A stretch of DNA of 64,000 nucleotides from positions 48,236,001 to 48,300,000 of the forward strand of contig NC_043015.1 of assembly GCF_006345805.1 (NCBI RefSeq). The letters run 5' to 3'. The notes under the pieces were generated by a model that did no database searches, was not told the DNA's origin, and saw only the letters and a program-made list of their open reading frames with translations. The DNA comes from Octopus sinensis (taxonomy: Eukaryota). Positions 700 through 62,065 of the stretch are shown piece by piece. Each line of letters begins with the position of its first letter. Position 1 is the stretch's first letter. Position numbers and translations under genes: made by a program.

Positions 700-886
700 G
701 CATTATTTACATTATTTACATTCAACAGATATTTGTCTTCATCTTGTTTGTTGTTAACCCGTTTCAGCTGATGTACCCTCCAAGCCTTCTTTAGGTGTCT
801 TGGGGAAATTTTGAACTTTGGTTCTCATTCCTAAGGTATTTTTCAATGTCATTATTGTTGTTGTTATAATAATAATAAGAATAATG

Positions 887-1166: not shown

Positions 1167-1277
1167 CACCTGTGTAGTATTGTCAACTTTGAAAATTTAA
1201 ACATGTGCTTCTTGTTTGCTTAATTTCCATTGACTTCTATTCTCATTGATACATTAAGATACAATATCATCTTGCAG

Positions 1278-1448
1278 AAATGGTGGATGGATTTTGGATA
1301 ATTTCCCATTAACTCAAGAACACTGGCAGTTGTGTTCAGACTTTAATTTAATCCCAGACACTGTCATTTGTTTGATTGATACATCAGATCAATGGAGTTG
1401 GTTAATGCATCAATGGGCAGAACATTTCTTTGCTACTGTCAAACACAG
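1278..1448 (+). CDS. AK9: AK9 exon ([16 protein letters not shown]...FATVKH)
   Basis: ttgcag acceptor, gtttgt donor, adenylate-kinase GWILDxFP motif, phase 2/2. Confidence 0.9.
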
Positions 1449-1786
1449 GTTTGTATAAGTTTAAAAGTCTTTTACATTTGTTTCCAATTTCAAACTTTGG
1501 CACAAGGCCAGCAATTCCAGGGAAGGAGGTAAGTTGATTACAATGGGTTCTTCTGCCCAGCTTAATTCCATATGTTCAGCTGTTCTGCTAACTTATATAA
1601 AATATTTACAGTATAGGCACAGGAATGGCTGTGTGGTAAGTAGCTTGCTAACCAACCACATGGTTGCGGGTTCAGTCCCACTGCTTGACATCTTGGGCAA
1701 GTGTCTTCTGCTATATCCCCGGGCCGACCAATGCCTTGTGAGAGGATTTGGTAGACGGAAACTGAAAGAAGCCTGTCGTATATATG

Positions 1787-1823
<37 letters not shown>

Positions 1824-4800
1824 TTGTGTGTCTGTGTTTGTCCCCCTAGCATTGCTTGACAACCGATGCTGGTGTGTTTACGTCCCCGTCACTTAGCGGT
1901 TCGGCAAAAGAGATTTTGAGGATCTGATCAAAGACATTGCAATTCAAAAAAGTAGGAGGAAACTTTTCAAATATAAATAAAGTGGAAGTATACAAAAATA
2001 AACATTATTTTCCCTCTTACTGTTTTTTTTTTCATTTTGAAAAATAAAAATTTATTTTGTGGTTTGTTATTGTTTATATTTTGAATTACATAATCTTTTA
2101 TGGGGGCACCAAAATCTTTTTAAGTGCTTAGGGCCTTGGTGGGTCTTAATCCAGCCCTGCACATCATCAGTAATTAATTTTATAAGCAAATTATTAGTAA
2201 TTAATTTTATATGCAAATTATCAGTAATTTATATGCCAATCATCAGTAATTAATTTATATGTATATCATCAGTAATTAATTTTATGTGCAAATTATCAAA
2301 TTTAAATGCAAATCTTCTATCTCTGCCCCTTTCCATGACCACCACTGCCGGATTTTAAAAACTTCAGATGTTTCTTATAACTACAAACAAACACAACTGT
2401 CCTTCATTTACATTTAATTCTGAATCATATTTCTTTCTTGTCTTTCAGGAAAGCAGGTAAATATAATGTAATCAAAGTTGAAGTTGGTAAATATGTCTTT
2501 GCTATCACCTGATCAAGTGAGATGTTTATTGCTAGCAACAGTAAAAATACCAATAAAAACAACAATAACAATTCTAACAACAATACTAATAAAAGGCGCA
2601 TGGCTCAGTGGTTAGAGCATTCGGCTCACAATCATGAGGTAGTGAGGTCGATTCCTGGACTGGGCTGTGTGCTGTGTTCTTGAGCAAGACACTTTATTTC
2701 ACGTTGCTCCAGTTCACTCAGCGGTAGAAATGAGTTGCAGTGTAACTGGTGCCAGCCTTTGCCTCTCCTTTGGATAACATCAGTGGTGTGGAGAGGAGAG
2801 ACTGGTATGCATGGGCAACTGCTGGTCTTCCATAAACAACCTTGCCTGGACTTGTGCCTTGGAGGGGAACTTTCTAGGTGCAATCCGATGGTCATTCATG
2901 ACCGAAGCGGGTATTTACTCTTTACTAATAAAAGTTGAGACCCCCTTCGGTCATGACTTACTGTGGGATTACACCTAGAAAGTTACTCTCCCAGGCACAA
3001 GTCCGGGCAAGGTGGTTTATGGAAGACCAGCAGTTGCCCATGCGTACCGGCCTCCCCTCTCCACACCACCAGTGTTATCCAAGGGAAAAGCAATGGCCGA
3101 TACAGCTTGGCACCTGTGACATCGCAACTTATTTCTACGGCTGAGTGAACTGGAGCAACGTGAAATAAAGTGTCTTGCTCAAGAACACAACACACAGCCC
3201 GGTCCAGGATTCAAACTCACAACCTCACGATCGTAAACTCGATGCTCTAACCACTGGGCCATGCGGCTTCACTAATAAAAAAATCAAATAAAAAACAGGA
3301 AAAATAATCTAGAATCCTTGTCTGGTACCAGATTGATCCCAAAATCTAATCAGTTTGTGCCAATTACGAGGCCGAACTTCCCTGAAAGTTTCATCTGAAT
3401 CGATCCTGTAGCAATAACAATAAAAATAACAAGGTTAGTAATAGAAATGATGGTCACTGCCATCGATTTTGATGTATAAGTAATGATTCAATGTCTGAGT
3501 ATTTGAAGATTTAAGAGAAAAATAAAAGAAGCTGCATCTATTTATGATGGATGAGTGAATGTGATGCAAGTGCAGGGATGGGTTTTGCTATGGAGTTACA
3601 CTTGAGACACTGATGGGATCGGACAAATGTATCTGTTGGTTGCAGGATATAATTCTTTTTAGATAATCAGAACAATGATAAGACTAACAAGAGCACTCAG
3701 AGAGCGCGAACCTCCGCCAAGGCAACACCGACGTCCCCTCAATGATTAGCCGGAGATGATTTTTTAAATGGAAATCTCTCTCTATCTGCTCAGTCGAAGT
3801 CGACTCTCGGTCACTCGTTGGATCAGTGTCCTCCAGTCAGTTCTATCCTGGGCCGCTTCTTTCAGATTGGCTATGTCCATCCCGGTATTACTCTTGATGG
3901 TGTCAAATATCTGAAATAAAACTCAATTGCTCTCACAAATGAGAATACTAATTATGAACCTGATCGCTCTCAAAAATTAAATAAAAAAACAGGAAAAATA
4001 ATCTAGAATCCTTGTCCGGTACCAGATTGATCCCAAAATCTAACCAGTTTGTGCCAGTTACAAGTTGTGCCAAACTTCCCTGAAAGTTTCATCCGAATCC
4101 ATCAAGTGGTTCTTGAGATATCTTGTCCATGGACAAACAAACAAACGGACATGACTGAAAGCAATACTTCCACCTTCGCTAAGGCCGGGGGTAATAACAA
4201 GAAAAACAACAGCAATGCAATACTAATAACAACATTTAAAGCAGCAGTTTAAAAATTTTTTTTTGTATTTCCTTCATTTCCAATCTTCCATGAAAAACAT
4301 GCCTCGTCATAAAGAAATACTGACTTGGAAAAGGGCAACAGGAAGAGCATTGCGACATATAAAAATATGGCTTCAACAAATTCTGTCCAACGCATGCAAG
4401 CATGGGAAAGTGGATGTTAAAACAATGACGACGATGATGTCATCTTTGTTGTTGTCAATGTTAGCGACGGTAGTGGCAATGACGGGTCAGGTTGACTATC
4501 AACCCCAATGGTTTTTCGTAGTCTGGGAATATTTAAAATGGGCAGACATGTTGCCACTCTGTCACACCTCATTTTTCCTTGATTGAATTTTATTTGAAAT
4601 TGGTCATTATTGCAAATAAATAATTCAAAGAAAGTTTGTTTCATTGATTGTAGCAATTGACAGTATTTTCTTTCTTTCTTTCTTTCTTTCTTTCTTTTTT
4701 TGTTGCTGTTCCTTCTGGGGTTTTTTTAAGAAGAGGAGGAGGAGGAAGAAGAAGAGGAAGAATTCTATAATGAAGATACTAGACTTGGAAAACCCGAGGG

Positions 4801-7800
4801 AAGACAACTTGGGGAAGAAAATGCTGAAGAAGAACTAGAACAAGAGCAAGAAGAAGAAGAAGAAGGGCAAGAAGAGCAAGAGAAAGAAGAGGAGAAATTG
4901 GAAAAAGACAGTGAACAGGAGAAAGAAGAGAAAGAAGCAAAAGAAGAAGCAGCAGAAGAAGAAGCAGAAAAAGAGGAAGAAGATGAGAAAAAAGAGGAAG
5001 AAAAAGAACAAGAAATGGTAAATAAAGAGGGAGAAGAAGGAGAAGTGGAAGAGGGAGAGGTAGAAGAGGAAGAAGAAGCAGTAAAACAGGAAGAATTAAA
5101 ATCGAAAACTCATTCTGTGTCAGACATGATTCCTAAGGGAGCAGAAGGTAAATATTTGTTTAGTATTCATGTATTTTATTTAGTATTTGATGTACTTCAT
5201 TTAATATTTAATGTACTTAAAGTGGCAATCTGGCAGAATCATAGGCACACCGGGCAGAATGCTCAGTCGCATTTCGTCTGTCTTTACGTTCTGAGTTCAA
5301 ATACTGCTGGGTCAACTTTGCCTTTCATCCTTTCAAGGTCAGTAAAATAAGTACCAGTTGAGCACTGGGGGGGTCAATGTAATTGACTTGCCCCCTCCCC
5401 TGAACTTGCTGGCCTTGTGCCAAAATTTGAAGCCAGTATTTAATGTACTCCATTTAATATTTGATGTACTCCACTCAATATTTGATATATTTCACTCAGT
5501 ATTTGATGTACTTCACTCAATATTTGATGTACTACACTCAATATTTGATGTACTCCACTCAGTATTTGATGTACTTCACTCAATATTTGATGTACTTCAC
5601 TCAATATTTGATGTACTCCACTCAATATTTGATATATTTCACTCAATATTTGATGTACTTCACTCAATATTTGATGTACTACACTCAGTATTTGATGTAC
5701 TCCACTCAATATTTAATATATCTCACTCAATATTTGATAGACTTCACTCAATATTTGATTTGCTTCACTCAATATTTGATGTACTCTGTTTAATATTGGT
5801 TTCAAATTTTAGCTCAAGCCAACAATTTTGAGGAAGGGCATAAGTTGATTACGTTGACCCCAGTACGCAACTGGTACTTATTTTATTGACCCTGAAATGA
5901 TGAAAAGCACAGTCAACCCTTGTAGAATTTGAACTCAGAATGTAAAGACAGACAAGATGCCACTAAGCATTTTGTCCGACTCAGTAATGATTCTGCCAGT
6001 TTGCAACCTTTGTCCTCCATTTAACATGAAATGTACTTCATTTAGTATTTAAAATACTTGTTTCATTTAATGTACTTCATTTGATATTTTATGTACTTGC
6101 TTTATTTAATATTTCTGGTTTTCATAAGAGTCTGACTTGTTCCTTCTCGAGCCACGCCTGGCTCATAAGGGCCGGTTTCCCGGTTTCCTTGGCGTATAGG
6201 TTCCCCACCTGGATGGGACGCCGGTCCGTCGCAGGTGAGCTACTGGCTTCCGTGTCGGTGGCACGTAAAAACACCATCCGAATCATGGCCGAAGCCAGTG
6301 CCGCCTCGACTGGCCTCCATGCAGGTGGCACGTAAAATGCACCAACCCGACCGTGGCCGATGCCAGCCTCGCCTGGCACCAGTGCAGGTGGCACGTAAAA
6401 AGCATCCACTACACTCACAGAGTTGTTGGCATTAGGAAGGGCATCCAGCTGTAGAAACTTTGCCAGATAAGACCAGAACCTGGTACAGCCTTCTGGCTTC
6501 CCAGATCCCCGGTCGAACCGTCCAACCCATGCTAGCATGGAGAACGGACGTTAAACAATGATGATGATGATGATGATATACGACGGACTTCTTTCAGTTT
6601 CCGTCTACCAAATCCACTCACAAGGTGTTTGGTCGGCCCGAGGCTATAGTAGAAGACACTTGCCCAAGGTGCCGCGCAGTGGGACTGAACCCGGAACCAT
6701 GTGGTTGGTAAACAAGCTACTTACCACACAGCCACCCCTGCGCCTTTGTATATGATTTGCAAGATTCTTCATGTGAATTTGTATTGGAACAAATTTTGTT
6801 GTGTCTAGGGATTGTCATTATCATTATGCCAATATTATTTTTTTTCTTTTTTTTTTCTACAGAAATGGAATTCATGGAAGAAGCAATATTTGTAAGAATT
6901 TTTTTTTTTTTATAATTGTTTTTCAAATTTTTTTTTCCTATACAAAGGAAAAAAATCCCAAGTTCTTATAAACAGTTCCAAAGTGGAATAAAATGGTTTG
7001 CTGTGAGAAAGCAATAAACCAGGATAACGGTAAAACGGAGAAAGCAGTAGCATTGATCGAGTGTCTAAGCACACCCCAAATGCACACACTTTTTTGAAGA
7101 ATGGAAAGCATGTGTGCTTTTATCATCATCACTATAATCATCATCACCATCACCACCACCACCACCATCATCATCATCACCATCATCATCACCATCATCA
7201 TCACCATCATCATCACTATCATCATCATCATCACCATAATCATCATCATCATCATCATCACCATCATCATCACCACCATTATCATCATCATCATCATCAC
7301 CATAATCATCATCATCACCACCACCATCATCATCATCATCATCACAACCACTACCATCATCATCATCATCATCATCATCACCATCACCATAATCATCATC
7401 ATCACCACCATTATCTTCATCCTCATCATCATCACCATCATCAACACCATCAGCAGTAGCATCAGCATCATCATCACCATTGTCATCACCATCATTGTCG
7501 TCGTTGTCGTCGCCGTTGTTGTTGTTGTCATTCAACATGAGCTTCTCCATCCTTGCGTGGGTGGAACGGACGGAATTTGGTGAGGCGGATCTTCTATAGC
7601 CGGATGGTCTTCCTTGTTGCCAACTGACACCTGTCCCCAGCAGCAAGGTAATAACTTCCCCACGACAAACATGTTTTTGTGGAAGATTGGAAATGAAGGC
7701 TACCGCTTGCAGGATGGTGACATTTGTTTACAACTAGCACATGAAGTCAAGACAAGGAGACAATAACACACACACACACACACACACCACACACACACAC

Positions 7801-7812
7801 ACATTTACATAT

Positions 7813-7852
<40 letters not shown>

Positions 7853-7893
7853 TTACATATGTACACACACACCACACACACACATTTACATAT

Positions 7894-7927
<34 letters not shown>

Positions 7928-7935
7928 TTACATAT

Positions 7936-7975
<40 letters not shown>

Positions 7976-8019
7976 TTACATATGTACACACACACACACA
8001 CACACACACATTTACATAT

Positions 8020-8051
<32 letters not shown>

Positions 8052-8127
8052 TTACATATGTACACACACACACACACACACACATTTACATATGTACACA
8101 CACACACACACACACACATTTACATAT

Positions 8128-8163
<36 letters not shown>

Positions 8164-8620
8164 TTACATATGTACACACACACATACACACATGTACAGA
8201 GTGTTTGAAGTCGTATACTCTTTTACTCTTTTACTCGTTTCAGTCATTTGACTGCGGCCATGCTGGAGCACCGCCTTTAGTCGAGCAACTCGACACCAGG
8301 ATTTATTCTTTTGTAAGCCCAGTACTTATTCTATCGGTCTCTTTTGCCGAACCGCTAAGTGACGGGGACGTAAACACACCAGCATCGGTTGTCAAGCAAT
8401 GCTAGGGGAACAAACACAGACACACAAACACACACATACATATATATATATACGTATATACGACAGGGTTCTTTCAGTTTCCGTCTACCAAATCCACTCA
8501 CAAGGCATTGGTCGGCCCGGGGCTATAGCAGAAGACACTTGCCCAAGATGCCATGCAGTGGGACTGAACCCGAAACCATGTGGTTGGTTAACAAGCTACT
8601 TACCACACAGCCACTCCTGC

Positions 8621-8655
<35 letters not shown>

Positions 8656-47976: not shown

Positions 47977-48021
<45 letters not shown>

Positions 48022-48024
48022 CAT

Positions 48025-48057
<33 letters not shown>

Positions 48058-50801: not shown

Positions 50802-50848
<47 letters not shown>

Positions 50849-50938
50849 GTACTGTTTCACGATTGAAAATTCAACAAAAAAGGTACTCTATTTGGTGAGA
50901 GATAAATATTATTTATTTAAAGGGCACAAAACATGTAT

Positions 50939-50995
<57 letters not shown>

Positions 50996-51382
50996 GGTAT
51001 GTAGAAAAATACAACATGGACAAGAACGTATAACTCATAGAAGACGATACAATAAACATGGACAGGACATTCGAACCCCTCAGTCTTCAGTCAAGAACCG
51101 GATCATCGTAGTAATTTCGGCTGATTAATCTTGATATATATAAAGTTAATCCAAACATGAAAACACAAAGAGAAAGCACAACAACGCGAGGACGTGGAAC
51201 AAATATAGTATTATTAGATACTCAGGAAGGAAAGGAAGGAGGGTTCTACGTTTTGAGCGGAGCTCTTCGTCAGAAACATAGGAAAAGGAAAGATCCAGAG
51301 AAGGGAAGACGGAGGAAATAAATTGCCAACAGTACACACGAGGTCACATTTTGAATGTATATATATACATTTTGAATGTGTG

Positions 51383-51424
<42 letters not shown>

Positions 51425-52968
51425 TGTGGGAGATCAACATACAAAAGTTATACAATCCTAGATTTTATCCATAAAAATAGTATTTTAGATGAAAGTAGCA
51501 GAAAACTGGATTTTCCCAATATCTGATCTAGCATACCTAATGAAATTATAGAAATTTAAAAAATCAGCCATGCTTGCTTTCATCCAGCTGTGCCTCTTTT
51601 TTATTTTCGAGTTTAAACTGAAGCACCAGGCAGATTACATATTTCAGCAAGATACATTATTTCATTTTCAGTTCAATTCTGCTGGGACATGAAAGCCTAT
51701 ATCAGCAGGGTGCAGGATTGCTTGCTTTCTGCATTAATCTTTTACTTGTTTCACTCATTGGATTGCAGCCATGCTGGGGCACCACCTTGTAGGGTTTAGT
51801 CTAACAAATCCACCCCAGTACTTAGGTTTTTTTTTTTTTAATCTAAATGGCGATGCCCCAGCATGGCCACAGCTTGTGAGCTGAAACTAGATAAAAATAA
51901 AAAAAAATAAAAAATACTTCTTCTGTTGGTTTCTGTTGCCGAACTCCTAAGATATGGAGATATAAACACACCAACACTGGTTGTCAAGTGGTGCTGATGT
52001 GGATCAAACGCAAAAACATGCACGCACACACACACACACACACACATACACACACGTACAAAGGGCTTCTTTCAGTTTCTCTCCATCAATTCCATTCATA
52101 AGGCATCTGTCAGCCTGAGGTTAAAGTGGAAGACACTTGCCCAAGGTGCCATGCAGTGGGACTGAACACAGAACCATGTGATACATAAGGAGCAACCTTC
52201 TTACAAACATTATTATTATTTTGGCATTAGGAAGGGCATCCAGCTGTAGAAACACTGCCAGATCAGACTGGAGCCTGGTGCAGCCTTCTGGCTTCCCAGA
52301 TCCCCGGTCGAACCGTCCAACCCATGCTAGCATGGAGAACGGACGATAAACGATGATGATGATGATGATGATGATATTATTATTATTATATTATTATTAT
52401 TATTATTATTATTGAGTGAGAGAGCAGTGGATGCCATCAAAGTGACACCGGGGTAAAATATATGAAGCCCAATATACCCATCATGACTACCCGTCTGATA
52501 AGGGTACACCAAGCACATTGCATCACAACCATATGTGCATGACATGGTGATCTCATATCAAGATAAACAGCACATGACCTTGCAGGTGGGGCCCAGTTAG
52601 AATTTTCTTCTGGTTGAGTAGCCCATACCGCTCAAAAGGTCCCTGAATAACGGTTGTTTAAGGATGTTGAACGAAACACCCATGTTTCCAGAGGTGAGTT
52701 ATTTAAACCCCAAAAAATCCCTCTCAACACATGGCTATGATGCTCCCCCACTACTTCTGCTCGTGATCAGAGATGCACATATCATCAGCCATTAAGGGAC
52801 ATGCTCAACTGGTTAAGATCAAGCAACTGACAAGCAAATCTGTGGTATTGAGCAGAATATTTGCTGTAGCCCATCTTTTATACCAAGACAAAACAATGCA
52901 CATGATAACACTTCCAATCAGTTAAGATCAGAAGCCACGAGAGCCACTGCCTGGTTCTGCATCAGGGC

Positions 52969-53063
<95 letters not shown>

Positions 53064-54191
53064 GTTTGACTTTTGCTATATATTGGTACAAGTTGGCTCC
53101 AACTCTCACCCAGAGACCTCAAGAGACAACATTATGTTTGTTTTAAGCCTTGAGATTTCATAGAAAGTATTTTGCGTAGGATATGAGCAGTTCCCATGAG
53201 CACTATCTCTTGAATTTCTGCCATTTTGGGGTTTCCTGGTATCTGAGTTAGGTAGAGATCAGCCCCTTTTGCTATCATTCCCAGAGCACCTATGTATGAC
53301 AACAGGTATTGTTTTAGGCTTCAGATTTCACATTTTGCTGATTTCTGTTTCAAGATCTTTATATTTGCTCAGTTTTTGGTAGGTCTTCACAGATACGTTT
53401 ATATCGATTGGGACAGTAATATCAATGAGGAGGCATGTTCTTTGTCTGAAGTCATTCAATATGATGTCTGGCCTATTTGCATCTATCTTTCTGTCAGTTT
53501 GAATGGGGAAGTTCCAGAGGAGTGAGATGCAGTCATTTTCAAGCACTGGGGGTGGTTTGTGTTCCCACCAGTTTTTTACATGGGGCAAATCCAGGTTTTT
53601 GCAGATTATCCAGTGAATATATTGTGCAGCTCTATCATGCCTGTTGAGGTACTCTGTAGGTGCTAGAAGAATGCACTTGGAGACAACATGATCAATGGTT
53701 TCATTTTGTTGTTGACATACACGACATGTTGGGCTACTGCCGTTCTTTATAATATGCTGGCCTGGTTGTTTCTTGTTGGTAGGCATTGATCTTGAGCTGC
53801 TATGATAAACCCCTCTGTTTCAGATTTTAAGCCAGAGGCCATTAGCCATTGATGGGTCAGGGCTTGGTCAACATCTGCATTTATTCGCTCTCTTTGGGTA
53901 TTTGCCATAGAGAGGTTTTTCTTACCATTTATCATTCAGAATATCTAAGGCTGCAGTTTTAGCACGAGTTTTAATGTGCTTAGCTTTTTCTGTGCTTGTT
54001 TCTTGTATGTCTATCTCTAATTCCGAAATTTGTTGTATTCGGAATTCACTTAAATATTCCTTTGCCTGTTTTGTTACTGAGTATGATGCTTTCTTGTTTT
54101 CATGTTTTGAGACAAGTTTTAACATCCAGTCCTCAGAGTTTTTCGGGTAGGTGTCTAGGCCAATTGTAGCAATCTTCATTGTTATTGCCAG

Positions 54192-54229
<38 letters not shown>

Positions 54230-57200
54230 GTAAAGTAAAAAATGTTTTAAGACCTTTTAAAACAGTTTGAACAACATTTGATGGTTTATTTTTACTTTTA
54301 TTCAGGAAAATATTACAAAATGGAAAATGAGGCACGAATGGAGACATTTTTAAATGAACCACAAAAATTTGTTCCTCCTTACGCTCCAATGGCTTTACCC
54401 CCTCAAGAACTGATCCCACAGAAATGTTTAAAGAAAGAAGAAACCCCACAATTTGAATACTTTGGTTACTGTCCCGTGACATACTATGAAGGAAAATGTC
54501 GGTATGATATTTTAAGGGGTTTTTTACAAAATATTGGTCTAAGTTTTCATTATTCATTTCAAAATAACAAAGGTTTTAATCTTTCTTTGTCTTCGATAAT
54601 GCTTTGTAAGTGAAATTGACTGATAGAAACTGTGGGGAAGCCCATCTTGCTATGTGATAGCAATTTATACTCTTGTTGAGGCAAGTGAAATCAAAATCAA
54701 ATTCGATGACTGGCATCCGTGCTTAGTGGAGCGCTAAGAGCACCATCCGAGCGTGATCGTTGCCAGAGCAGCTAACTGGCTTTTGTGCCGGTGGCACATA
54801 AAAAGCACCAATCGAGCATGATTGTTACCAGTGTTGCCTTACTGGCACATGAAAAAACATTCGAGTGAGGTCGTTGCCAGTGCCACTGAACTCGCTCCGG
54901 TGCCCTTCCTAACACCATCCACTCCAGGAGTGTAATAGGTACTTTTACATACCTCCGGCTACAGTTCACGGATACCATTCACATGGCATTGGTAACAACG
55001 GCTATGATTCACGAATGCCATTTACATGGCACCAGCAATGACCATGATTCACAGATACCATTTACATAGTGCCGTCAACACCCACAACTCACAGGTGCCA
55101 TTTACATAGCGCCACCTTAATTTGTTTATAACAGTTAATGTTTTATAAGTAAAGGCACATGGCCTAGTGGTTAGAGTGTCGTGCTCACAATTTCAAAATT
55201 GTGTTTCAATTCCTGAATCAAGTAATGCATTGTATTTTTGAGCAAAACACTTCATTTTATATTGCTCCAGTCCACTCAGCTGCAAATGAGTGACCCTGTG
55301 ACATACTAGCATCCCATTCAAGAGCAGGAGTGATCTTTGTCATTCATATGCCATGGAAACTAGGTAACTGTCTTTATGAGCCCCAAGACATGAGACAGTC
55401 ATGTCCAGTTGGTAGGTTTACTTAATCTCTCTATATATAAACGGCAAAATATCTGTGTGCGTGTCCTTTATACAAATCCACAATTTTTCAGTTAGAGAGC
55501 TCACACTTTCTGTGGTCATTCAAAACCTTCCAAGGGTGGTCGTGCACATCTTTACATTTTCCCAGTCACCCTGCAAAGCCATTAAAAAATCAATAGAAGT
55601 GACTGACTTTTTTGTGAATTTTGTATCCAAATCCCAATCAAAATGCCCGAAACTTGATACGCCAATTGAATGCCAGATAGCTGTATGTGATTGGTCAGAG
55701 ATTTGGACAGTACTCGCATGTATGTGCGCACGCACGCAGCTGTATATGCATGCACTAGCACTATGACCCGGCATTGCCTGGTCATAGTGCTAGTGTTTTA
55801 TAAACTGTTTGGTCAGGCTTTCACTTATGCTGTCTTTTCTTTTTTTTTTTATTTTTGTTTTGGGTTTTTGTTTCTAGATATGAAGCAATTACTCTTGGTC
55901 AACCAGATTTAGTTGCTGAATATCAGAAAAAATATTATTGTTTTGCCTCAGAAGAGAAACTGGAAAAATTCATGAGGTAATTAATACTTCATAATTTCTT
56001 AATAAAATAACATTGTATAACAAAATTTAAAAAAAAAAAAATTTGTCTTTGGTCAGTAATTGTTATTTCCTATTTGCTTCAATCTAGAAATCAAAGGAAA
56101 TGACTTCTATTCCCTTCAAACATTGCTTTTGTGACCTAGATATCAATGTTTTGAAACTGACTTATTTTCCATTACATTTCACACAGATTCAGCACTGAGT
56201 TGCTGAAGCAGAAATATCGTTATAGCAAATATTCTGCTCAGTACCACAGATTTGCTTGTCTGTTGCTTGACCATAACCACCTGAGCATGTTCCTTAGCGA
56301 CTGACAATATGTGTGTATCTTGGATTATGAGCTGGTGTAGTGGGGAGGGATTATTTTGGTTTTGAAAAAATGTAACAAAAGCAAAGTCTGAAGAAAACAT
56401 TAGCCATTTTTCATACTTTGTAGGGGTAAGCAGGTAGAAAATAACAGTTGCTACCCAAGGGCAAAAATCATGTTACACAATGTAACCATTCTAACTGAGC
56501 AGAGTTCTGGTTACAATATAGTTCTGCTCAATCAAGATTAACCAGGATTAAACAACAATGACTGCAGGATGAGGTAAACTTCATTAATTATGAAGAATTG
56601 GTAATAATTAATTAAATAGATTATTGATTTTTTATAGCAAATTAAATAAATAAATAATAAATAAATAAATAAATATTACCACTCTCTAGTTTTGGAGGAA
56701 AGGATAATTCTTTCTACTAAAGACACAAGGCCTGAAATTTGTGGGGAAGGGACTTGTTGATTACATCGACCCCAGTGTATAACTGGTACTTAATTTATTG
56801 ACCCCGACAGGATGAAAGGCAAAGTTGGCCTCAATGGAATGCCATATAGCATGAATCGTCAACTCTTTTTTTTTTTTGCCAAATGTACCAGTTTCCTGCA
56901 ACACAATTTTTCCACTGGCCAGGGGATCAGATGCATGATAAAACACAATAAGCCGAATAATCATCATCGTTTAACGTCCGTTTTCTGCGCTAGCACGGGT
57001 TGGATGGTTCGACCGGGGTCTGGGAAGCCAGGGGCTGCACCAGGCTCCAGTCTGATCTGGCAGTGTTTCTACAGCTGGATGCCTTTCCTAACGCCAACCA
57101 CTCTGCGAGTGTAGTGGGTGCTTTTTACGTGCCACTGGCACAGGTGCCAGGGGAGTCTGGCATCGGCCACGATCGGTTGGTGCTTTTAACGTGCCACCAG

Positions 57201-59310
57201 CACGGGAGCCAGTCAAGGCGGCGCTGGCATCGGCATCAGCCACGTTCAGATGGTGCTTTTTATGTACCACCAGCACAGAAGCCAGTCGAGGCGGTGCTGG
57301 CAACGGCCACGTTCGGATGGTGCTTTTTATGTGCCACCGACACAGAAGCCATTAGCATGCCAGGAAAACTGTTTAGAGGCATTCCATCCATCTTTAGATT
57401 GCGAGTTCAAAATGTGTCAAGGTCGGTTTGATTTATAGTTAATCACCCGAACCCTAACCTGAACCCTGCCATCCATCATCATGTGGTGAACATGATCAAT
57501 GTTTTTTTTGGTGGTGACATCTGCAGGACGTCCAGACCTTGGGTCATTTTTATGCTTCTCCCTTCTCCCTTTAAATTCAGCTACCTGCTTTTGCACTGTT
57601 ATTATTCCTTAATTTAGCAACCATGTCAGCATCAGTGTCCTTGAGGGCCAAACCCTTTCTCTGCAGGTACTTGATAACACCGCAATGCCAAATTTTGTCC
57701 ATTTTTCAAGAGAAGTCACTACTAGTTACCTTTGAAGTCTTCTTTGAACAGTTAGATAACAGTGTACTGGGAAAGAACTAATCTTTTCTACCCTAGGCAC
57801 AAGGCCTGAAATTTTGGGGGAAGGGGCCAGTCAATTACATCGACCCCAGCATGCAACTGGTACTTGATTTATCAATCCAAAAAGGATGAAAGGCCAAGTC
57901 GACCTCAGCAGAATTTGAACTCAGAACATAAAGACAGACAAAATACCGCTAAACATTTCGCCTGACATTCTAACGTCTCTTATTTCTTTACTGCCTACAA
58001 TGGGCTACACACAGAGAGGACAAACAAGGACAGACAAACGAATTAAGTCGATTATATCGACCCCAGTGCATAACTGGTACTTATTTAATCGACCCTGAAA
58101 GGATGAAAGGCAAAGTCGACCTCGGTGGAATTTGAACTCAGAATGTAGCTGCAGACGAAATACCTATTTCTTTACTACCCACAAAGGGCTAAACACAGAG
58201 AGGACAAACAAGGACAAATGGATTAAGTCAATTATATCAACCCCAGTGCATAACTGGTACTTATTTAATCGACCCCGAAAGGATGAAAGGCAAAGTTGAC
58301 CTTGGCGGAATTTGAACTCAGAACATAGCGGCAGACGAAATACTGCTAAGCATTTCACCCGGCGTGTTAACATTTCTGCCAGCTCGCCGACTTGAATTCT
58401 AATGTTTCTGCCAGCTTGCCACCTTCCTGGAAATAAATAATGCAGTTGAAATTAATGCATGGAAGATTTTGTACCTCTAGTGTCACTCCTTCATAGTCAG
58501 CCTATGAACTTTGCAATCCACCCGCATAAACATCCAAAAGTGTTTTTCAGCCCAATATTTACATGCTGTTATTAGCAGCGTTATATATTTCATGATCCAC
58601 TGTTCCAAGAAAAAAAATTATTTCATGTTCTCTCAAAAGTTTACGATTTCTTATGACTTCAGCAATAATTAAAAAAAATATTCATTTCATTTTCAGATTA
58701 CCACAGGTATACAGTAAAATTGAATTGAGTTATAAACTTCCTCCAAAACCTGATCCATTAATGGTAAATCTTCTGCCTAATCTTGGCTTCATGGAACAGT
58801 CATTATCAACACCAATTTTGAGAGCACTGGTTGCCGTTGGAAACTTCAAACCAAAGTTTCCTTTCCTCAGTCCCACACAGTCTGCTCTTCTCTATGTAGC
58901 TTTCCATCTTAAAGGTAAATATCATTTTATATACAACCCAATGTAAGAAATATGGTGGCTGGTATCCAGGGTAAACTTTAGCGTCTCTATAAAACTTAGA
59001 AAAAGAGTTGTCTGTTGATGAGTGATTTTAACCCTTTTGTTACCAACCTAGCTGAAACCGCCTCAGGCTCTGTAGTACAAATATGTTGTTTTCCTAAGTT
59101 TTGAATTAAAATCTTCCACCAAACCTTATTCACAATTTATGTTCCTAACAGTAGCTAGATGATAACTAAGTTATTTTTACTAAATTCTTTGTTATATTTA
59201 AAGTAATTGAAAGAAACACAGAGCCACTTTTACAACATTGAAGGCTCCTGGGCAAATTCATGCATTGGGCCCTATTTATTGACAAGTACACACACACACA
59301 CACACACACA

Positions 59311-59375
<65 letters not shown>

Positions 59376-62065
59376 AACTCTGCCAGATCAAGATTGGAGC
59401 CTGGTGCAGCCATCTGGTTCGCCAGTCCTCAGTGAAATCATCCAACCCATGCTAGCATGGAAAGCAGATGTTAAACGATGATACTCTCTCTTTTACTTCT
59501 TTCAGTCATTTGACTGCGGCCATGCTGGAGCACTGCCTTTAATCGAGCAACTCGACTCCAGGACTTATTCTTTTGTAAGCCCAGTACTTATTCTATCGGT
59601 CTCTTTTGCTGAACCGCTAAGTAACGGGGACATAAACACACCAGCATCGGTTGTCAAGCAATGCTAGGGGGACAAACACAGACACACACATGCATATATA
59701 TATATACATATATACGACAAGCTTCTTTCAGTTTCCGTCTACCAAATCCACTCACAAGGTTATAGTAGAAGACACTTGCTCAAGGTGCCACGCAGTGGGA
59801 CTGAACCTGGAACCATGTGGTTGGTAAACAAGCTACTTACCACACAGCCACTCCTGCACCTATATATATATGAGAAACTCTGCCAGATCAAGATTGGAGC
59901 CTGGTGCAGCCATCTGGTTCACCAGTCCTCAGTCAAATCATCCAACCCATGCTAGCATGGAAAGCAGATGTTAAACGATGATGATGATGATATATATCAC
60001 AGCTGAAGTGTTAAGACTGGTCCTTCTGTAGCGGTGCCATGCAAAAGTGCTTGTGTGGTGCCACATAAAAGCACCCAGCACATTCTGTAAAGTGACTGGT
60101 GTTAGAAAGGGCATCCAGCTGTAGAAACCATGCCAAATCAGACTGGAGTCTAATGCAGCCAGCTGGGGAGCTACATTAGACTCCAGTACTTAGTTATTAT
60201 ATTGGCCCCTTTTGCTGAGCTGTTAAGTTACTGTTCATAAACAAACAAGTACCGGTTGTCAAATGTTGGTGGTAGGAGGACAAGCACAGACACATATGTA
60301 TGCACACATATATACATATATAAATCATCATCATCATCATATGTCCGCTTTCCATGCTAGCATGCGTTGGACGGTTCAACTGGGATCTGGGAAGCCAGAA
60401 GGCTGCACCAGGCCCAGTCTGATCTGGCAGTGTTTCTACAGCTGGATGCCCTTCCTAACGCCAACCACTCCGTGAGTGTAGTGGGTGCTTTTTACATGCC
60501 ACCGGCTGGGAAACGGCCACGATCGGATGGTGCTACACACACATAACACAAATAAGTATAGAAAAATATACAACTTACTCAAAAATAGTTTAAAACATCC
60601 AATGTAATTTTTTTATGCTGTCTTATAAGCTTTTATGCTAATTTTTGTGCTATTTTTTCCCAGTATTTTCCTTCAAATTAGTTGACACTGAACAATTAAT
60701 TACCTTAGAAATGAAAAGCTATGATTCAGTACATTATTTACATTCAACAGATATTTGTCCTCATCTTGTTTGTTGTTAACATGTTTCGGCTGATATACCC
60801 TCCAGTAGTGATTAAGAGCACAGGCTACTAACCCCAAGATTCCTAGTTCGATTCCAAGCAGTGACCTGAACAATAATAATAATAATAATATCATCGAAAA
60901 ATACCATAGGAATGAGAACCCAGGTCTGAAATTTCCCCAAGACAAGAAGGCTGGAGTGTATATCAGCCGAAACGTTGTGTTAACATCAAAGATGAGGACA
61001 AATATCTGTCGAATGCAAATGATGTAAATAATGTTCATAATTCCTCATCTCTTAAATAGAGAACTATGATTCAGTATTTCGTTTTTGGATTTGGCTTGCA
61101 AGATTCTTTATATGAGTTCGTGTGTTGAAGCATATTCTGTTGTGTCTGGGGAGTGTCATTCTCTTTTAGAGCCTTATTATTTAACACACTCACCAGTAAA
61201 ATTTCCACTTATTTCTTATTTTTGTTTTCTAAAATTTTCGTTGCGTCTTGCAACCTTGTCAAGACTATTGAAAAGGTTGCAAGACGCAACAAAAATTTTA
61301 GAAAAATAAATAAAGGAGTGGAAACTTTTACTTGTGAGTGTGTTAGATAATAAGGTACTAAAAGAGAATAGTGGAGGTGCAATGGCCCAGTGGTTAGGGC
61401 AGCGGACTCGCGGTCGTAGGATCGCGGTTTCGATTCCCAGACCGGGCGTTGTGAGTGTTTATTGAGCGAAAACACCTAAAGCTCCACGAGGCTCCGGCAG
61501 GGATGGTGGTGATCCCTGCTGTACTCTTTCACCACAACTTTCTCTCACTCTTACTTCCTGTTTCTGTTGTACCTGTATTTCAAAGGGCCGGCCTTGTCAC
61601 TCTCTGTGTCACGCTGAATATCCCCGAGAACTACGTTAAGGGTACACGTGTCTGTGGAGTGCTCAGCCACTTACACGTTAATTTCACGAGCAGGCTGTTC
61701 CGTTGATCGGATCAACCGGAACCCTCATCGTCGTAACCGACGGAGTGAAAAGGAAGGCGCTTCCATCAAAAGAGAATGATTCTTCCCAGACACAACAGAA
61801 TATGATTCAGTACTTATACAATATTTAGTAATTCATATTTCTTTTCTTTGCAGCTTTTAACAAACAGAAATCAGGTTATATCAGGAAAAAATATAAACAA
61901 AAATTAAAGAATTTTGAAGAAAATTGTAATCTGATTGCGTACCTCAGTAGCAACATGAGCGAGTCTTACCAAAAAACTGACCAAAGAGAATTTGGCTTCA
62001 CTGAAAAACTGGAGACTTTTTTTGCTCTAAAAGATTTTAAACAGAATTCAATTTGGATTGCATAA
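1278..62065 (+). CDS. AK9: Adenylate kinase 9-like gene, 5'-partial, 24 coding exons in window (~1310 aa)
   Basis: 24 exons with AG/GT ends join in consistent phase with no stop until TAA 62063-62065. Motifs: [32 protein letters not shown], four YCPV/WCPV YHS-like modules, and the C-terminal [22 protein letters not shown] typical of AK9. Confidence 0.93.
2449..2486 (+). CDS. AK9: AK9 micro-exon (38 nt; alternative in-frame donor gives 8 nt, 2449-2456)
   Basis: Long polypyrimidine tract plus ttcag; two gtaaat donors 30 nt apart; needed to go from phase 2 to phase 1. Confidence 0.65.
2595..2923 (+). mobile_element. tRNA-derived SINE (family D)
   Basis: tggctcagtggttagagc A box, gtcgattcc B box, flanked by actaataaaa. 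Confidence 0.8.
2934..3270 (-). mobile_element. tRNA-derived SINE (family D), inverted relative to its neighbour
   Basis: Reverse-complement similarity to 2595-2923, flanked by actaataaaa. Confidence 0.8.
3686..4195. mobile_element. Dispersed repeat with terminal hairpin (Helentron/DINE-like); second copy at 36252-36620
   Basis: aacaagagcactcagagagc start, (acaa)n, end stem-loop; carries a ~130-bp LINE-like insert at 3776-3905. Confidence 0.55.
4731..5147 (+). CDS. AK9: AK9 Glu-rich exon (417 nt)
   Basis: Pyrimidine tract plus taag acceptor, open E/K-rich frame, gtaaat donor, phase 1/1. Confidence 0.75.
5437..5795. repeat. 21-bp minisatellite, ~17 copies
   Basis: Unit tatttgatgtacttcactcaa. 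Confidence 0.9.
6863..6891 (+). CDS. AK9: AK9 micro-exon (29 nt, [10 protein letters not shown])
   Basis: Poly-T plus ctacag acceptor, gtaaga donor; converts phase 1 to phase 0 as the next exon requires. Confidence 0.75.
7122..7530. repeat. Compound (CAT/CAC)n microsatellite
   Basis: Direct reading. Confidence 0.95.
7768..8198. repeat. (CA)n array regularly interrupted by tttacatatgt
   Basis: About ten constant interruptions between variable CA tracts. Confidence 0.9.
8217..8955 (-). mobile_element. Two tandem copies of the abundant tRNA-derived SINE family A (internal TA/CA microsatellite)
   Basis: Head tggctgtgtggtaag..gggttcagtccc, CORE-like cttgggcaagt, tail (gtaaaaga)n; further copies at ~1616-1912, 6578-6744, 11499-11902, 33843-34215, 44228-44925, 51740-52205, 59482-59860 and 62635-63105. 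Confidence 0.85.
9155..9362 (+). CDS. AK9: AK9 exon (TDGETEITL...KVVEEIE)
   Basis: tttag acceptor, gtaagt donor, open frame, phase 0/1. Confidence 0.85.
9417..9801 (+). mobile_element. Full-length tRNA-derived SINE (family C; possibly octopus OR-type)
   Basis: A box tggcccagtgg, B box gtttcgattcc, 13-bp TSD tagtgttcaaatt at 9404-9416 and 9802-9814; other copies at 61370-61767 and 15799-16028 (-). Confidence 0.85.
10672..10793 (+). CDS. AK9: AK9 acidic exon (LFKHEAIEY...DNYDEE)
   Basis: aacag acceptor, gtattg donor, phase 1/0. Confidence 0.85.
12268..12480 (+). CDS. AK9: AK9 exon, YHS-like module ([15 protein letters not shown]...PEDYTP)
   Basis: ttgtag acceptor, gtttgt donor, YCPV...YYL...F..QPEDY pattern, phase 0/0. 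Confidence 0.92.
12780..14177. repeat. 66-bp minisatellite, ~21 copies, derived from the RTE 3' UTR subrepeat
   Basis: Period 66 (gtaaaaagca at 12961, 13027 and so on); the unit matches 28010-28220. Confidence 0.9.
14298..14491 (+). CDS. AK9: AK9 exon with P-loop ([17 protein letters not shown])
   Basis: ttccag acceptor, gtaagt donor, Walker A motif, phase 0/2. Confidence 0.93.
16178..16229 (+). CDS. AK9: AK9 small exon ([17 protein letters not shown])
   Basis: tttcag acceptor, gtaagt donor, phase 2/0 fits both neighbours. Confidence 0.8.
18424..18675. repeat. 13-bp minisatellite (tat(g/a)agacaata..)
   Basis: Direct reading; ends ~30 nt before an exon acceptor. Confidence 0.85.
18708..18841 (+). 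CDS. AK9: AK9 exon ([16 protein letters not shown]...PWWFEEPY)
   Basis: ttatag acceptor, gtttgt donor, WWxEEP motif, phase 0/2. Confidence 0.9.
19531..20050. mobile_element. pogo/Tigger-like MITE inserted in a SINE
   Basis: ~25-bp TIRs ccataaatcctcgagtataatccgc / gcggactatacttgaggatttacag, TA flanks. Confidence 0.75.
20790..20981 (+). mobile_element. Short 3' fragment of a second RTE-like LINE
   Basis: [19 protein letters not shown] followed by (GAT)n; TSD tgagagaggct at 20779-20789 and 20982-20992. Confidence 0.75.
21151..21370 (+). CDS. AK9: AK9 exon ([10 protein letters not shown]...IMQER)
   Basis: ttttag acceptor, gtgagt donor, AK G-F-x-L-(D/E)-G-(F/Y)-P motif, phase 2/0. Confidence 0.92.
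23096..23167 (+). CDS. AK9: AK9 exon ([12 protein letters not shown]...AAEE)
   Basis: ttcaag acceptor, gtattt donor, 72 nt phase 0/0, coiled-coil-like. Confidence 0.8.
23454..24207 (+). mobile_element. Mariner transposon, 5' half, degenerate transposase
   Basis: TA plus TIR ttgggttgtcc..; ATG at 23636; RSGRP, WVPHEL and IVTGDEKW motifs with stop codons. Confidence 0.9.
24419..24484 (+). CDS. AK9: AK9 exon ([22 protein letters not shown])
   Basis: ttaaag acceptor, gtaatt donor, 66 nt phase 0/0. Confidence 0.78.
24641..24834. repeat. 30-bp minisatellite, ~6 copies
   Basis: Unit tatagaactgggataatcctcagttcattt. Confidence 0.85.
24967..25083 (+). CDS. AK9: AK9 exon ([19 protein letters not shown]...EKVR)
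   Basis: ttgcag acceptor, gttagt donor, 117 nt phase 0/0. Confidence 0.85.
25287..26301 (-). mobile_element. Non-autonomous Helitron-like element with a different interior
   Basis: Same terminal hairpin and tctctctatatataa 5' end as 55426-55793, (GTCT)n near the 5' end, AT target. Confidence 0.7.
26372..26923 (+). mobile_element. ~550-bp non-coding module flanked by (TAA)n; second copy at 52414-52970 (-)
   Basis: Two highly similar copies with matching ends, both between TAA tracts. Confidence 0.75.
27247..28363 (+). mobile_element. 5'-truncated RTE-clade LINE (ORF C-terminus plus 3' UTR, (GAT)n tail)
   Basis: [35 protein letters not shown] with internal stops. The 3' UTR end (ggaagggcatccagctgtagaa..catgctagcatgg..) recurs as short truncated copies throughout the window. 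Confidence 0.88.
28983..29201 (+). CDS. AK9: AK9 exon (IGLEDQLIP...LGYWCPVM)
   Basis: ttgcag acceptor, gtaatt donor, R.SLFERVYP and G.WCPV motifs, phase 0/0. Confidence 0.92.
29403..29711 (+). mobile_element. tRNA-derived SINE with family-C-like head and a different 3' tail
   Basis: A/B boxes, (CAA)n end, 15-bp TSD aatttgttcaagtag at 29388-29402 and 29712-29726; the same tail occurs at ~6135-6245 (-). Confidence 0.85.
31369..31798 (+). mobile_element. Full-length SINE family A
   Basis: ggcgcaggagtggctgtg head through the gtaaaagag tail. Confidence 0.85.
32495..33775. mobile_element. Cluster of nested SINE family B copies in both orientations
   Basis: At least five partial or full copies inserted into one another. 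Confidence 0.8.
34278..34491 (+). CDS. AK9: AK9 exon (LKEGNP...YIYFLSS...[10 protein letters not shown])
   Basis: ttcaag acceptor, gtaagt donor, YHS-like tail plus Walker A GPPKSGKT, phase 0/1. Confidence 0.93.
34775..35142. repeat. Degenerate CA-rich repeat with internal duplication
   Basis: Direct reading. Confidence 0.85.
35570..36135 (+). mobile_element. Mariner internal-deletion derivative (MITE) with both TIRs
   Basis: TA TSD, ~28-bp TIRs, transposase N-terminus fused to the C-terminal HPPYSPD region. Confidence 0.9.
36658..36887 (+). mobile_element. 3' fragment of a third RTE-like LINE
   Basis: [26 protein letters not shown] then a (caagt)n tail. Confidence 0.65.
37485..38130. mobile_element. 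Old fold-back element with degenerate HHR, right arm interrupted by a piggyBac-like MITE
   Basis: Inverted arms 37564-37680 and 37713-37823, resuming after 38046; CTGAAGA/CTGAGGA-GGTCAC..GAAAGATTTC in the arms. Confidence 0.5.
37826..38046. mobile_element. piggyBac-like MITE (TTAA, ccctttag..ctaaaggg)
   Basis: TTAA flanks and short TIRs; interrupted copies at 9399-10017, 20636-21068 and from 35529. Confidence 0.75.
38166..38367 (+). CDS. AK9: AK9 exon ([17 protein letters not shown]...GLTVPDEL...TRG)
   Basis: tttcag acceptor, gtatat donor, AK NMP-binding LSxGD and GxxVPD motifs, phase 1/2. Confidence 0.93.
39208..39435. repeat. AT-rich palindromic (fold-back) element
   Basis: ~105-bp diverged inverted arms with a short loop. 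Confidence 0.6.
39501..39998. mobile_element. Fold-back element with HHR-like motif, in (TA)n
   Basis: ~185-bp inverted arms 39595-39778 and 39810-39998, TGATGA-A-GAC..GTC-A-GAAAC-CATG-GTC at 39780-39842. Confidence 0.55.
41039..41562 (+). mobile_element. Mariner deletion derivative, 5'-truncated copy
   Basis: Same deletion junction as 35570-36135; [18 protein letters not shown]; right TIR plus TA. Confidence 0.88.
41922..42068 (+). CDS. AK9: AK9 exon (YVFDGIPAT...ERVEKE)
   Basis: tttcag acceptor, gtgagt donor, GYVxDG motif, phase 2/2. Confidence 0.9.
42243..42689. repeat. 51-bp minisatellite, ~9 copies, derived from RTE ORF end
   Basis: Unit encodes [17 protein letters not shown], matching [15 protein letters not shown] at ~27691-27735. 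Confidence 0.88.
43259..43476 (+). CDS. AK9: AK9 exon ([11 protein letters not shown]...SKWALW...YLENVKK)
   Basis: cttcag acceptor, gtaaag donor, HNSAQI and SKW motifs, phase 2/1. Confidence 0.92.
43866..44097 (-). mobile_element. Full-length SINE family B
   Basis: Head ggcggcgagctggcagaa, B box gagttcaaattcc, body gcctttcatcctttcggggtcgataaattaagtacc (Meta/Sauria-like from recall), TSD ataccaatacc at 43855-43865 and 44098-44108; copies at ~5222, 5810, 20388, 22507, 23209 and 48577. Confidence 0.85.
44447..44667. mobile_element. Short fold-back element with HHR-like core, inserted in the (TA)n of a SINE
   Basis: Near-perfect ~75-bp arms 44517-44667, CTGATGA..GAAAC in each arm, left tail. 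Confidence 0.55.
45051..47147 (-). mobile_element. 2.1-kb Penelope-like non-autonomous element with inverted pLTR-like ends, in (TA)n
   Basis: ~125-bp inverted repeats at 45131-45255 and 47019-47147, ~80-nt one-sided extension, HHR motif at 45226-45267 on the minus strand, internal direct duplications, no ORF. Confidence 0.6.
48326..48484 (+). CDS. AK9: AK9 exon, YHS-like ([11 protein letters not shown]...[13 protein letters not shown]...AEYQ)
   Basis: tgccag acceptor, gtaatc donor, phase 1/1. Confidence 0.93.
48999..49662. mobile_element. Element with ~110-bp inverted termini enclosing the CR1 fragment
   Basis: 49001-49113 is the diverged reverse complement of 49551-49662. Confidence 0.6.
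49190..49550 (-). mobile_element. CR1-clade LINE 3' fragment
   Basis: Minus-strand [36 protein letters not shown], the typical CR1 ORF2 end. Confidence 0.8.
49679..50190 (+). mobile_element. Retrozyme-like insertion: 353-bp monomer, ~1.4 tandem copies
   Basis: 153-bp direct repeats at 49685-49837 and 50038-50190 (one mismatch seen), HHR in between, 15-bp flanking duplication tcacattgtgtgatt at 49664-49678 and 50182-50196. Confidence 0.75.
49968..50026 (+). ncRNA. Type I hammerhead ribozyme
   Basis: GTGAT-TGC-CGTACG CTGAGGA C-AGG-TCAATA-CCT-A GAAAC TGCA GTC CGTGCG-T-ATCAC. Full core, stem I with internal loop, stem II, short stem III with palindromic loop, GUC cleavage triplet at 50012-50014. 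Confidence 0.85.
53061..54192 (-). mobile_element. R4/Dong-like non-LTR retrotransposon fragment (CCHC knuckle plus restriction-like endonuclease), frameshifted
   Basis: [31 protein letters not shown] motifs; bounded by (TAA)n on both sides. Confidence 0.85.
54306..54501 (+). CDS. AK9: AK9 exon (KYYKM...[11 protein letters not shown]...[10 protein letters not shown])
   Basis: attcag acceptor, gtatga donor, phase 1/2. Confidence 0.93.
55426..55793 (+). mobile_element. Non-autonomous Helitron-like element
   Basis: A|TC start, 3' hairpin ctagcactatgacc..ggtcatagtgctag, CTAG|T end, no TSD. Confidence 0.75.
55878..55976 (+). CDS. AK9: AK9 exon (YEAITLG...[20 protein letters not shown])
   Basis: ttctag acceptor, gtaatt donor, YHS Y.F.S....F pattern, phase 2/2. 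Confidence 0.93.
57780..58425 (-). mobile_element. Cluster of three tandem/nested SINE family B copies
   Basis: Repeated ggatgaaaggcaaagtcgacctcggcggaatttgaactcagaa blocks. Confidence 0.8.
58697..58914 (+). CDS. AK9: AK9 exon (LPQVY...KLPP...GFMEQ...KPKFPFLS...HLK)
   Basis: tttcag acceptor, gtaaat donor, conserved AK9 C-terminal block, phase 2/1. Confidence 0.94.
60732..61064. mobile_element. Fold-back Penelope-like element (copy 2 of the 700-1166 family) with tRNA-like segment
   Basis: Same arms and the same tail cataattcctcatctcttaaata..gaact; TSD tatgattcagta at 60720-60731 and 61065-61076. Confidence 0.65.
61077..61800. mobile_element. Fold-back element interrupted by a SINE
   Basis: Arms start catattctgttgtgtctggg (61131) and end cccagacacaacagaatatg (61804); flanked by tatgattcagta. 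Confidence 0.6.
61370..61767 (+). mobile_element. Full-length tRNA-derived SINE (family C)
   Basis: Near-identical to 9417-9801; TSD aaaagagaat at 61360-61369 and 61768-61777. Confidence 0.85.
61854..62065 (+). CDS. AK9: AK9 terminal coding exon ([18 protein letters not shown]...IWIA*)
   Basis: ttgcag acceptor, phase 1, in-frame TAA at 62063-62065. Confidence 0.92.

Follow-up and report, generated by a model that had tools for sequence, protein, structure and literature searches.

Fold-back elements in the introns of the octopus AK9 gene

The window, by which we mean the whole stretch of 64,000 nt analysed (Octopus sinensis, contig NC_043015.1, positions 48,236,001 to 48,300,000), holds exons of the gene for adenylate kinase 9 (AK9), which were located by tblastn with the Octopus vulgaris AK9 protein (Table 1); the exon at 58596-58943 is 99% identical to that protein. 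All elements discussed below are intronic in this SINE- and microsatellite-rich gene, as a first-pass annotation, made from the letters alone, had proposed in placing its elements within one gene. The stretch 60700-61380 was present in part in sequencing runs of four organisms. A glutamate-rich frame of 206 codons between AK9 exons (4730-5350) was not among the tblastn matches of more than 70% identity, and is probably an AK9 exon.

Fold-backs were recovered by self-BLAST and arm alignments at every place where they had been annotated, with arm identities of 77-97%, a range from which the families appear to differ in age; the element at 51144 is a single arm with no fold-back partner. The arms stand head to head and, where a hammerhead ribozyme (HHR) is recognisable, its motif reads from the centre outwards, the longer arm adding a 3' tail. 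This one-sided extension measures 31 nt in both copies of F1, ~57 nt in F6, ~68 nt in F4 (where it opens with a bulged hairpin), ~77 nt in F5 and ~90 nt in F3 (structured, fold z -2.74). The first-pass annotation had given 30-95 nt for most of its elements; the asymmetry at 37485 is partly due to a nested MITE.

Target duplications flank F1a (12 nt, one mismatch), F1b (13 nt, exact), F6 (12-15 nt) and F9 (15 nt, exact), and none of 298 random position pairs outside simple repeats reached the duplication score. The earlier observation that several copies sit in (TA)n was borne out for F3 (39501), F4 (44447), F5 (45051) and F7 (51144), while no target duplication or microsatellite target was found in the flanks of F2, F3a and F10. 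The inner breakpoints lie at most ~15 nt upstream of the HHR core, or within stem II, in F1b, F3, F4, F5, F6 and F10; those of F1a, F2 and F3a are neither near the core nor in stem II. Altogether, debris of HHR-bearing Penelope-like elements (PLEs) makes up ~7% of the window and falls into about ten families. These had been called unrelated in sequence, which is correct for arms and cores; the tails at 37485 and 61077 (F2 and F6) are related (69.5% over 82 nt, E 3.6e-4), and the ends at 39501 and 45051 (F3 and F5) have 22 nt in common (E 7e-4).

Table 1. Features of the window (positions are those of the window; fold-back spans are from self-BLAST)
Feature	Positions	Strand	Fold-back span	Description
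AK9 (host gene)	1258..62062	+		21 exon matches, residues 621-1859
F1a	700..1166	+	701-1165	inverted tail-less arm 701-867, (AAT/GAT)n centre, sense arm 961-1166; decayed minimal HHR, core 1029; tail 1136-1166; target duplication 688-699, 1167-1178
F1b	60730..61065	+	60730-61065	inverted arm (60730-60805) ends within HHR stem II; the sense copy that follows has a tRNA-like head, (AAT)n and an HHR body lacking the first core box (deletion at 60944), with its tail at 61036-61065; target duplication 60719-60731, 61064-61076
F1 tRNA-like head	60805..60870	+		5'-truncated; B box 60846-60854
F2	37437..38130	-	37564-37823	old fold-back, 77% arm identity; cores 37637 (-), 37750 (+)
TIR element nested in F2 right arm	37826-38045			ends TTAACCCTTT; related ends at ~35530
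F3a	39199..39465	+		fold-back in (TA)n; both arms with a decayed core of U3:A8 type (39271 -, 39373 +); stem I of 5 bp, stem III GCGC; tail short
F3	39502..39996	-	39595-39996	fold-back
F4	44447..44668	-	44512-44672	near-perfect fold-back; both boxes at 44582 (-) and 44603 (+)
F5	45051..47143	-	45127-45255/47019-47152	arms 96-97% alike
F6	61077..61802	-	61158-61369	tailed arm 61077-61262; inverted arm 61263-61369 + 61768-61802, split by a tRNA-SINE
F7	51144..51355	-		single arm; minimal HHR core 51273
Lone F2/F6-type tail remnant	6745..6825	-		78% over 83 nt to F6 tail
F9	49679..50181	+		non-coding unit of 353 nt, 1.4 copies head to tail; the repeated 156 nt are 98.7% alike; HHR 49976-50020
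F10	30683..31367			fold-back in two copies, within a duplication of 442 nt; both arms have the first core box
F13	10865..12200			old unit, one inverted and two tandem copies; decayed HHRs (11060 -, 11404 +, 12070 +)

Hammerhead motifs in single copies and in the read consensus

The first-pass annotation attributed a CUGAnGA..stem II..GAAA motif of varying integrity to all of its elements. Both core boxes were found in the right arm at 700, in the left arm at 37485 and in each arm at 44447 (there with a stem II of only two pairs), and the remaining copies deviate: 45051 carries one box per arm, so that its HHR is split between 45263 (-) and 47034 (+); in 51144 the GAAA has decayed to AAAA; the first box is missing from 60732; both arms of 61077 read UUGAnAA (U3:A8); and both arms at 39501 have only the second half (GAAA, palindromic stem III, UC). 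A strict HHR descriptor passed none of the eight named copies; its two hits in the window (49982 and 11404) both lie outside them, and 20 shuffles together gave one hit. With a relaxed descriptor the window gave 6, 5 and 3 hits at scores of at least 8, 9 and 10, respectively (shuffles 0-3, 0-2 and 0-2), and one of the eight named copies passed at 8 or more, being also among the five at 9 or more. A descriptor hit at 10381 was taken as chance. No HHR family was among 142 Rfam matches at E up to 10, minimum free energy folding did not recover the HHR fold in most copies, and of eight motifs folded in this way only two had a z below -2. Single copies are thus weak evidence, and the case for the ribozymes rests on the read consensus, position and orientation.

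The consensus was built for F1b and F6 from three DNA runs, which represent three organisms, and from a raw, unstranded RNA run. The first core box of F1 is intact in all four runs, as seen from loose ends in 195, 203 and 164 contigs and from reads with insertions (315 of 1215 and 340 of 528). In the restored F1 HHR stems I and II have 5 bp each, stem II is preceded by an additional base and stem III is ACGU, which corresponds to the minimal type I HHR described by Cervera and de la Pena (PMC4209133; here and below, published work is cited from those parts of the papers that were available). In F6 the GAAA is regained at 61291 (75-82%), and U3 and A8 are kept in both arms, with no other letter among the rows listed. 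A descriptor scan, as proposed earlier, thus passed none of the named copies in its strict form, and the reads yielded a minimal HHR for F1 and F6; a minimal type I HHR is found in a single copy in F9, and half cores in F3 and F10.

Being of the minimal type I with palindromic stem III, these HHRs would be predicted to cut only as dimers. Within AK9 pre-mRNA they are unlikely to fold, since the arms of a fold-back would pair with each other. Read ends of the RNA run did not pile up at the predicted cleavage sites or accumulate in number anywhere else, so that this run gives no sign of cleavage; a study of anole PLEs likewise saw no cleavage (PMC11167929). On the F1/F6 stretch 84% of RNA reads continue into unlike sequence, which indicates mostly read-through in other transcripts.

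Tails and truncation in F2 and F6

Contigs leave the F6 arm at many inner positions, from 61094 to 61221, a pattern that 5' truncation would produce and fixed terminal inverted repeats would not. Across 60719-61812 one 12-nt word, common to the F1b and F6 duplications, occurs three times, which suggests that a single site received these two elements in succession. In F2 an apparent overhang of 80 nt is not the tail, because the nested TIR element interrupts the right arm; with that element removed the arms match out to 37486 and 38130, and the true extension seems to lie further out, at 37437-37486.

The F2 and F6 tails and the lone remnant near 6.8 kb all have an in-frame ATG and a similar 28-codon frame, with 8, 9 and 11 changes by codon position, a bias too weak to prove coding. 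Pseudo-LTR (pLTR) tails of Penelope/Poseidon elements carry the start of the ORF (PMC11167929, PMC3846280). The F6 arm also has a consensus 5' splice site (GGTGAGT, 61194, minus strand), which precedes the ATG of the tail frame by 35 nt; introns can occur in PLE pLTRs.

Further hammerhead-bearing elements

Several elements were absent from the first-pass annotation, among them F3a, F9, F10 and F13 (Table 1). F9 carries the only fully intact HHR in the window, a minimal type I form, and its head-to-tail arrangement falls within the retrozyme definition (a type I HHR in units 150-450 nt long), so that by its sequence it is retrozyme-like. The last 9 nt of its unit are identical to the first 9 nt of the flanking duplication (49664-50196), which suggests a homology-primed insertion, and the copy starts 21 nt downstream of the equivalent of the predicted cut site, as it would if a circle or dimer had been copied over more than one unit. 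The arms of F10 have no GAAA. The interior of F5 spans 1.7 kb, is non-coding, has 6% G on the plus strand and contains an internal duplication.

Beside F7, a short element in (TA)n (50993-51134) has a first core box (51090, minus strand) with no clear GAAA, and is perhaps another PLE end. A (TA)n-flanked repeat is present in two copies (38935-39070 and 17843-17958, 86%) and contains a short motif that resembles one of the F3 tail.

Search for linked reading frames and further copies

None of the 291 non-exonic frames of at least 55 aa in the window matched a PLE RT or GIY-YIG domain, so that the link between arms and PLE ORFs sought by the first-pass annotation was not found within the window. 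The sole RT-type hit among these frames was a zf-RVT domain in an unrelated LINE remnant. A 44-codon frame opened by the AUG of the F4 core matched no PLE protein and one repetitive unrelated protein, and the peptides of the F2, F6 and 6.8-kb tails matched no protein; both searches are weak at 30-45 residues. Such an absence of ORFs is expected for stubs and passengers, and suggests that autonomous PLEs may have left most of the copies as truncated stubs. In a search for further copies in other data, no metagenome contig and no genome contig was found, and 49 viral loci that contain a 16-mer were taken as chance, no BLAST match to any family being longer than 37 nt.

Family F1 and its tRNA-like head

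The F1 head in the window is truncated at 60805, and read letters upstream of this point complete an A box lying 45 nt before the B box (window plus read consensus); both are putative boxes, recognised by the A/B-box consensus. Upstream of the A box the read consensus stops agreeing. Neither ARAGORN nor Rfam gave a tRNA match on the cut head of the window copy. Reads passed from F1 into unlike flanks 1503 times behind the tail and 639 times before the tail-less arm, which makes two kinds of ends.

We tentatively suggest that F1 could be an abundant SINE-like element of ~300 nt found in several octopus species and hitherto undescribed, in which a predicted Pol III tRNA head is followed by (AAT)n, a PLE pseudo-LTR with an intact minimal HHR, and a tail, and which would be mobilised by the RT and endonuclease of a PLE. 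A rather unlikely alternative is that the head belongs to a separate SINE with an (AAT)n tail, joined once to a PLE end or co-transcribed with it by chance, and is no part of F1. The head is indeed present in only one of the two window copies, and the reads were cut at the (AAT)n linker with loose ends there dropped, so that no read was seen to bridge head and body. However, the head sits inside the 13-nt duplication, is cut at the inversion joint and lacks a separate duplication; none of the other SINEs in the window matches it; the (AAT)n linker is present in both arms of copy a; and the depth of head relative to body was alike in all four runs (1.15, 0.89, 1.12 and 0.79, contig depth not being copy number).

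If F1 is read as a single SINE-like element, it may be the PLE counterpart of LINE-dependent SINEs and of the LTR-dependent Helenus and Cassandra. It resembles these Pol III-headed passengers of LINEs and LTR elements (for those of LTR elements, PMC10886601) in its Pol III-type head and differs from them in its pLTR-like body with a tail and in its PLE-type fold-back insertion. The SINE-like HHR elements of schistosomes, SM-alpha and Sj-alpha (PMC6765202), are like F1 short and non-coding and combine a Pol III-type head with an HHR, and F1 differs from them too in its body and mode of insertion. A repeat annotation of Octopus vulgaris (PMC13282606) counts 31 PLE families with recent activity and 893 SINE families left unclassified, with no mention of hammerheads found in the available part of that paper, and F1 may already sit in its library. 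Neither a tRNA-headed, PLE-mobilised SINE nor octopus HHR fold-backs appeared in the literature as covered by titles and abstract openings (most subscription journals, Repbase and Dfam lay outside the scope). If true, F1 as a tRNA-headed PLE passenger would represent a missing class of Pol III parasites, and would offer a short natural template for the role of the PLE hammerhead and for the formation of tail and inversion.

Origin of the fold-backs

The fold-backs are real and very probably PLE-derived, each the product of one insertion by a PLE RT and GIY-YIG endonuclease starting from an RNA 3' end. What was observed directly is the architecture, the duplications, the consensus cores of F1 and F6, the variable truncation of F6 and the likeness of F4 to Hydra elements; the PLE origin proposed in the first-pass annotation is well supported by this architecture, by the 12-15-nt duplications, by the consensus HHRs of two families and by the homology of F4 to Hydra-clade PLE ends. 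Against it stand the failure of all named copies under the strict descriptor, the half cores of F3 and F10, a consensus drawn from two families, the lack of a linked RT or GIY-YIG frame and of an RNA-end pile-up at cleavage sites, tails of 57-90 nt where 30-40 nt are in print, and the dissimilarity of F4 to Hydra-1_Obim. That the elements are instead MITEs of DNA transposons with HHR-like words by chance would agree with their shortness, lack of coding sequence and inverted ends, with single copies scoring near the shuffled background, and with the presence of a true TIR element in the window (37826-38045). This is nevertheless highly improbable: the equal fixed-length TIRs and fixed duplications of 2-9 nt that mark MITEs, which had been named beforehand as signs of DNA transposons, were not seen in the fold-backs, in which the arms are unequal, the inner joints variable and the duplications 12-15 nt long; cores are restored in the consensus, U3:A8 covariation is found in two families, and F4 has Hydra-type homology. 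For F1, F4 and F6 the MITE explanation is largely refuted.

The first-pass annotation went further in describing the whole population as non-autonomous, ribozyme-bearing PLE derivatives. The PLE derivation stood, whereas non-autonomy was shown for no family and is likely for three, being indicated by non-coding bodies only in F1 (tRNA-like head), F5 (1.7-kb interior) and F9 (353-nt unit). In its strong form, with all families dedicated derivatives that have short master copies, we consider the proposal unlikely. It is favoured by the absence of coding sequence from every copy, by the defined upstream end of the F1 head, by the F5 interior and the F9 unit, and by non-autonomous PLE derivatives in print (PMC8557442). 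On the other hand, severe 5' truncation of autonomous PLEs, combined with an inverted partner, gives the same stubs (PMC4209133, PMC8969392), and the F2, F6 and 6.8-kb tails have an ATG and a 28-codon frame like those of Penelope/Poseidon pLTR tails, if with weak codon bias.

In the PLE-derived origin that we favour, the enzyme would nick both strands, either at a distance of ~12-15 nt or within (TA)n. One cDNA would start at the far end and include the tail, and the other would start 30-90 nt further in, and so be tail-less; synthesis of both would end prematurely, in many cases at the hammerhead or inside it, and their head-to-head joining would yield exactly the units seen here. Priming at two sites and on two strands is taken from the literature, the anole PLE protein having been found to nick and extend both strands and its RT to start at two sites whose distance equals the tail (PMC11167929); we infer the pairing of enzyme with family, the cleavage and the non-autonomy. 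About ten families would have been active at different times; they would belong to several lineages of PLEs, of which one or more is of Hydra type. Most copies would be dead stubs of autonomous PLEs or of short derivatives, with F1, F9 and probably F5 as non-coding passengers, and the longer tails of the other families (57-90 nt) may map lineage-specific internal RT start sites.

Comparison with known elements

The octopus elements have in common with endonuclease-bearing (EN+) PLEs (Arkhipova 2013, PMC3846280; Craig 2021, PMC8557442; Frangieh 2024, PMC11167929) an inverted 5'-truncated pLTR, a one-sided tail, target duplications, microsatellite targets and an HHR near the 3' end. They differ in being without an ORF, in having tails of 57-90 nt in four families (compared with 30-40 nt), and in duplications of 12-15 nt (compared with 8-10 nt in the Adineta PLE examples). 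Pairs of minimal HHRs on opposite strands, 100-700 bp apart and in many unrelated families per genome, were described by Cervera and de la Pena (2014, PMC4209133), so that the pattern itself is already known, and these are new members in a new genome. The extra base before stem II, the palindromic stem III and, in F6 and F3a, the U3:A8 pair are likewise features of metazoan minimal type I HHRs in that paper, where the U3:A8 core covariant is known from Schistosoma PLEs; Octopus was absent from the one supplement file searched.

F4 has the same HHR stems I and III as Hydra-2_Amil, and nearly the same as Hydra-1/2_Ajap (compared by eye over a few dozen bases). Its distance from core to end is 135 nt, compared with ~130 nt in two of the Hydra PLEs, and its bulged tail hairpin recurs with changed pairs in Hydra-2_Amil, again by eye. 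These Hydra elements bear ORFs and target (TA)n; F4 also lies in (TA)n, without an ORF. This indirect link, which concerns the 3' end (the only part present) as compared by eye, suggests that F4 is a PLE end of Hydra-clade type. Identity with Hydra-1_Obim was rejected, there being no match between the two. The stem III of F3 resembles that of Hydra-1_Obim. A Naiad origin of F3 or F5 was also considered and set aside: no Octopus Naiad was among the matches listed in motif searches of the available part of the Craig supplement (PMC8557442), and the 3' ends of Naiad_Obim and Naiad_Ovul shown there are unlike the F3 and F5 arms.

With non-LTR retrozymes (PMC7229834; bioRxiv 10.64898/2026.07.22.740005), which the same sources regard as PLE derivatives, F9 has in common a non-coding unit of ~350 nt, the head-to-tail arrangement and a type I HHR; it differs in comprising only 1.4 units with one HHR, and the other octopus families are inverted and not tandem. 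About ten HHR-bearing PLE families, whose debris would amount to several percent of intron sequence in octopus, would escape annotation based on ORFs, and such hairpins should not be filed as MITEs. The known pattern is thereby extended to a genome with one HHR-bearing PLE found in print (Hydra-1_Obim).

Other repeats in the window

A minus-strand LINE remnant with zf-RVT and restriction-like endonuclease motifs, which we take to be Dong/R4-like, lies between (TTA)n runs at 52519-54230, and a 484-nt 3' piece of it is repeated at 95% identity at 26336-26819. Remnants of Tc1/mariner-like transposases were seen at 23600-24100 (HTH Pfam hits at 23789-24076) and 35170-36140. Two tRNA-headed SINE copies stand tail to tail at 2593-3269 and form a palindrome of 680 nt; octopus SINEs were reportedly described by Ohshima and Okada in 1994. 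A perfect-looking hairpin of 43 nt is present in two copies (25286-25330 and 55750-55795), a minisatellite with 21 copies of a 66-nt unit derived from a common repeat occupies 12718-14271, and a 21-nt array with inverted flanks extends over 5168-6060.
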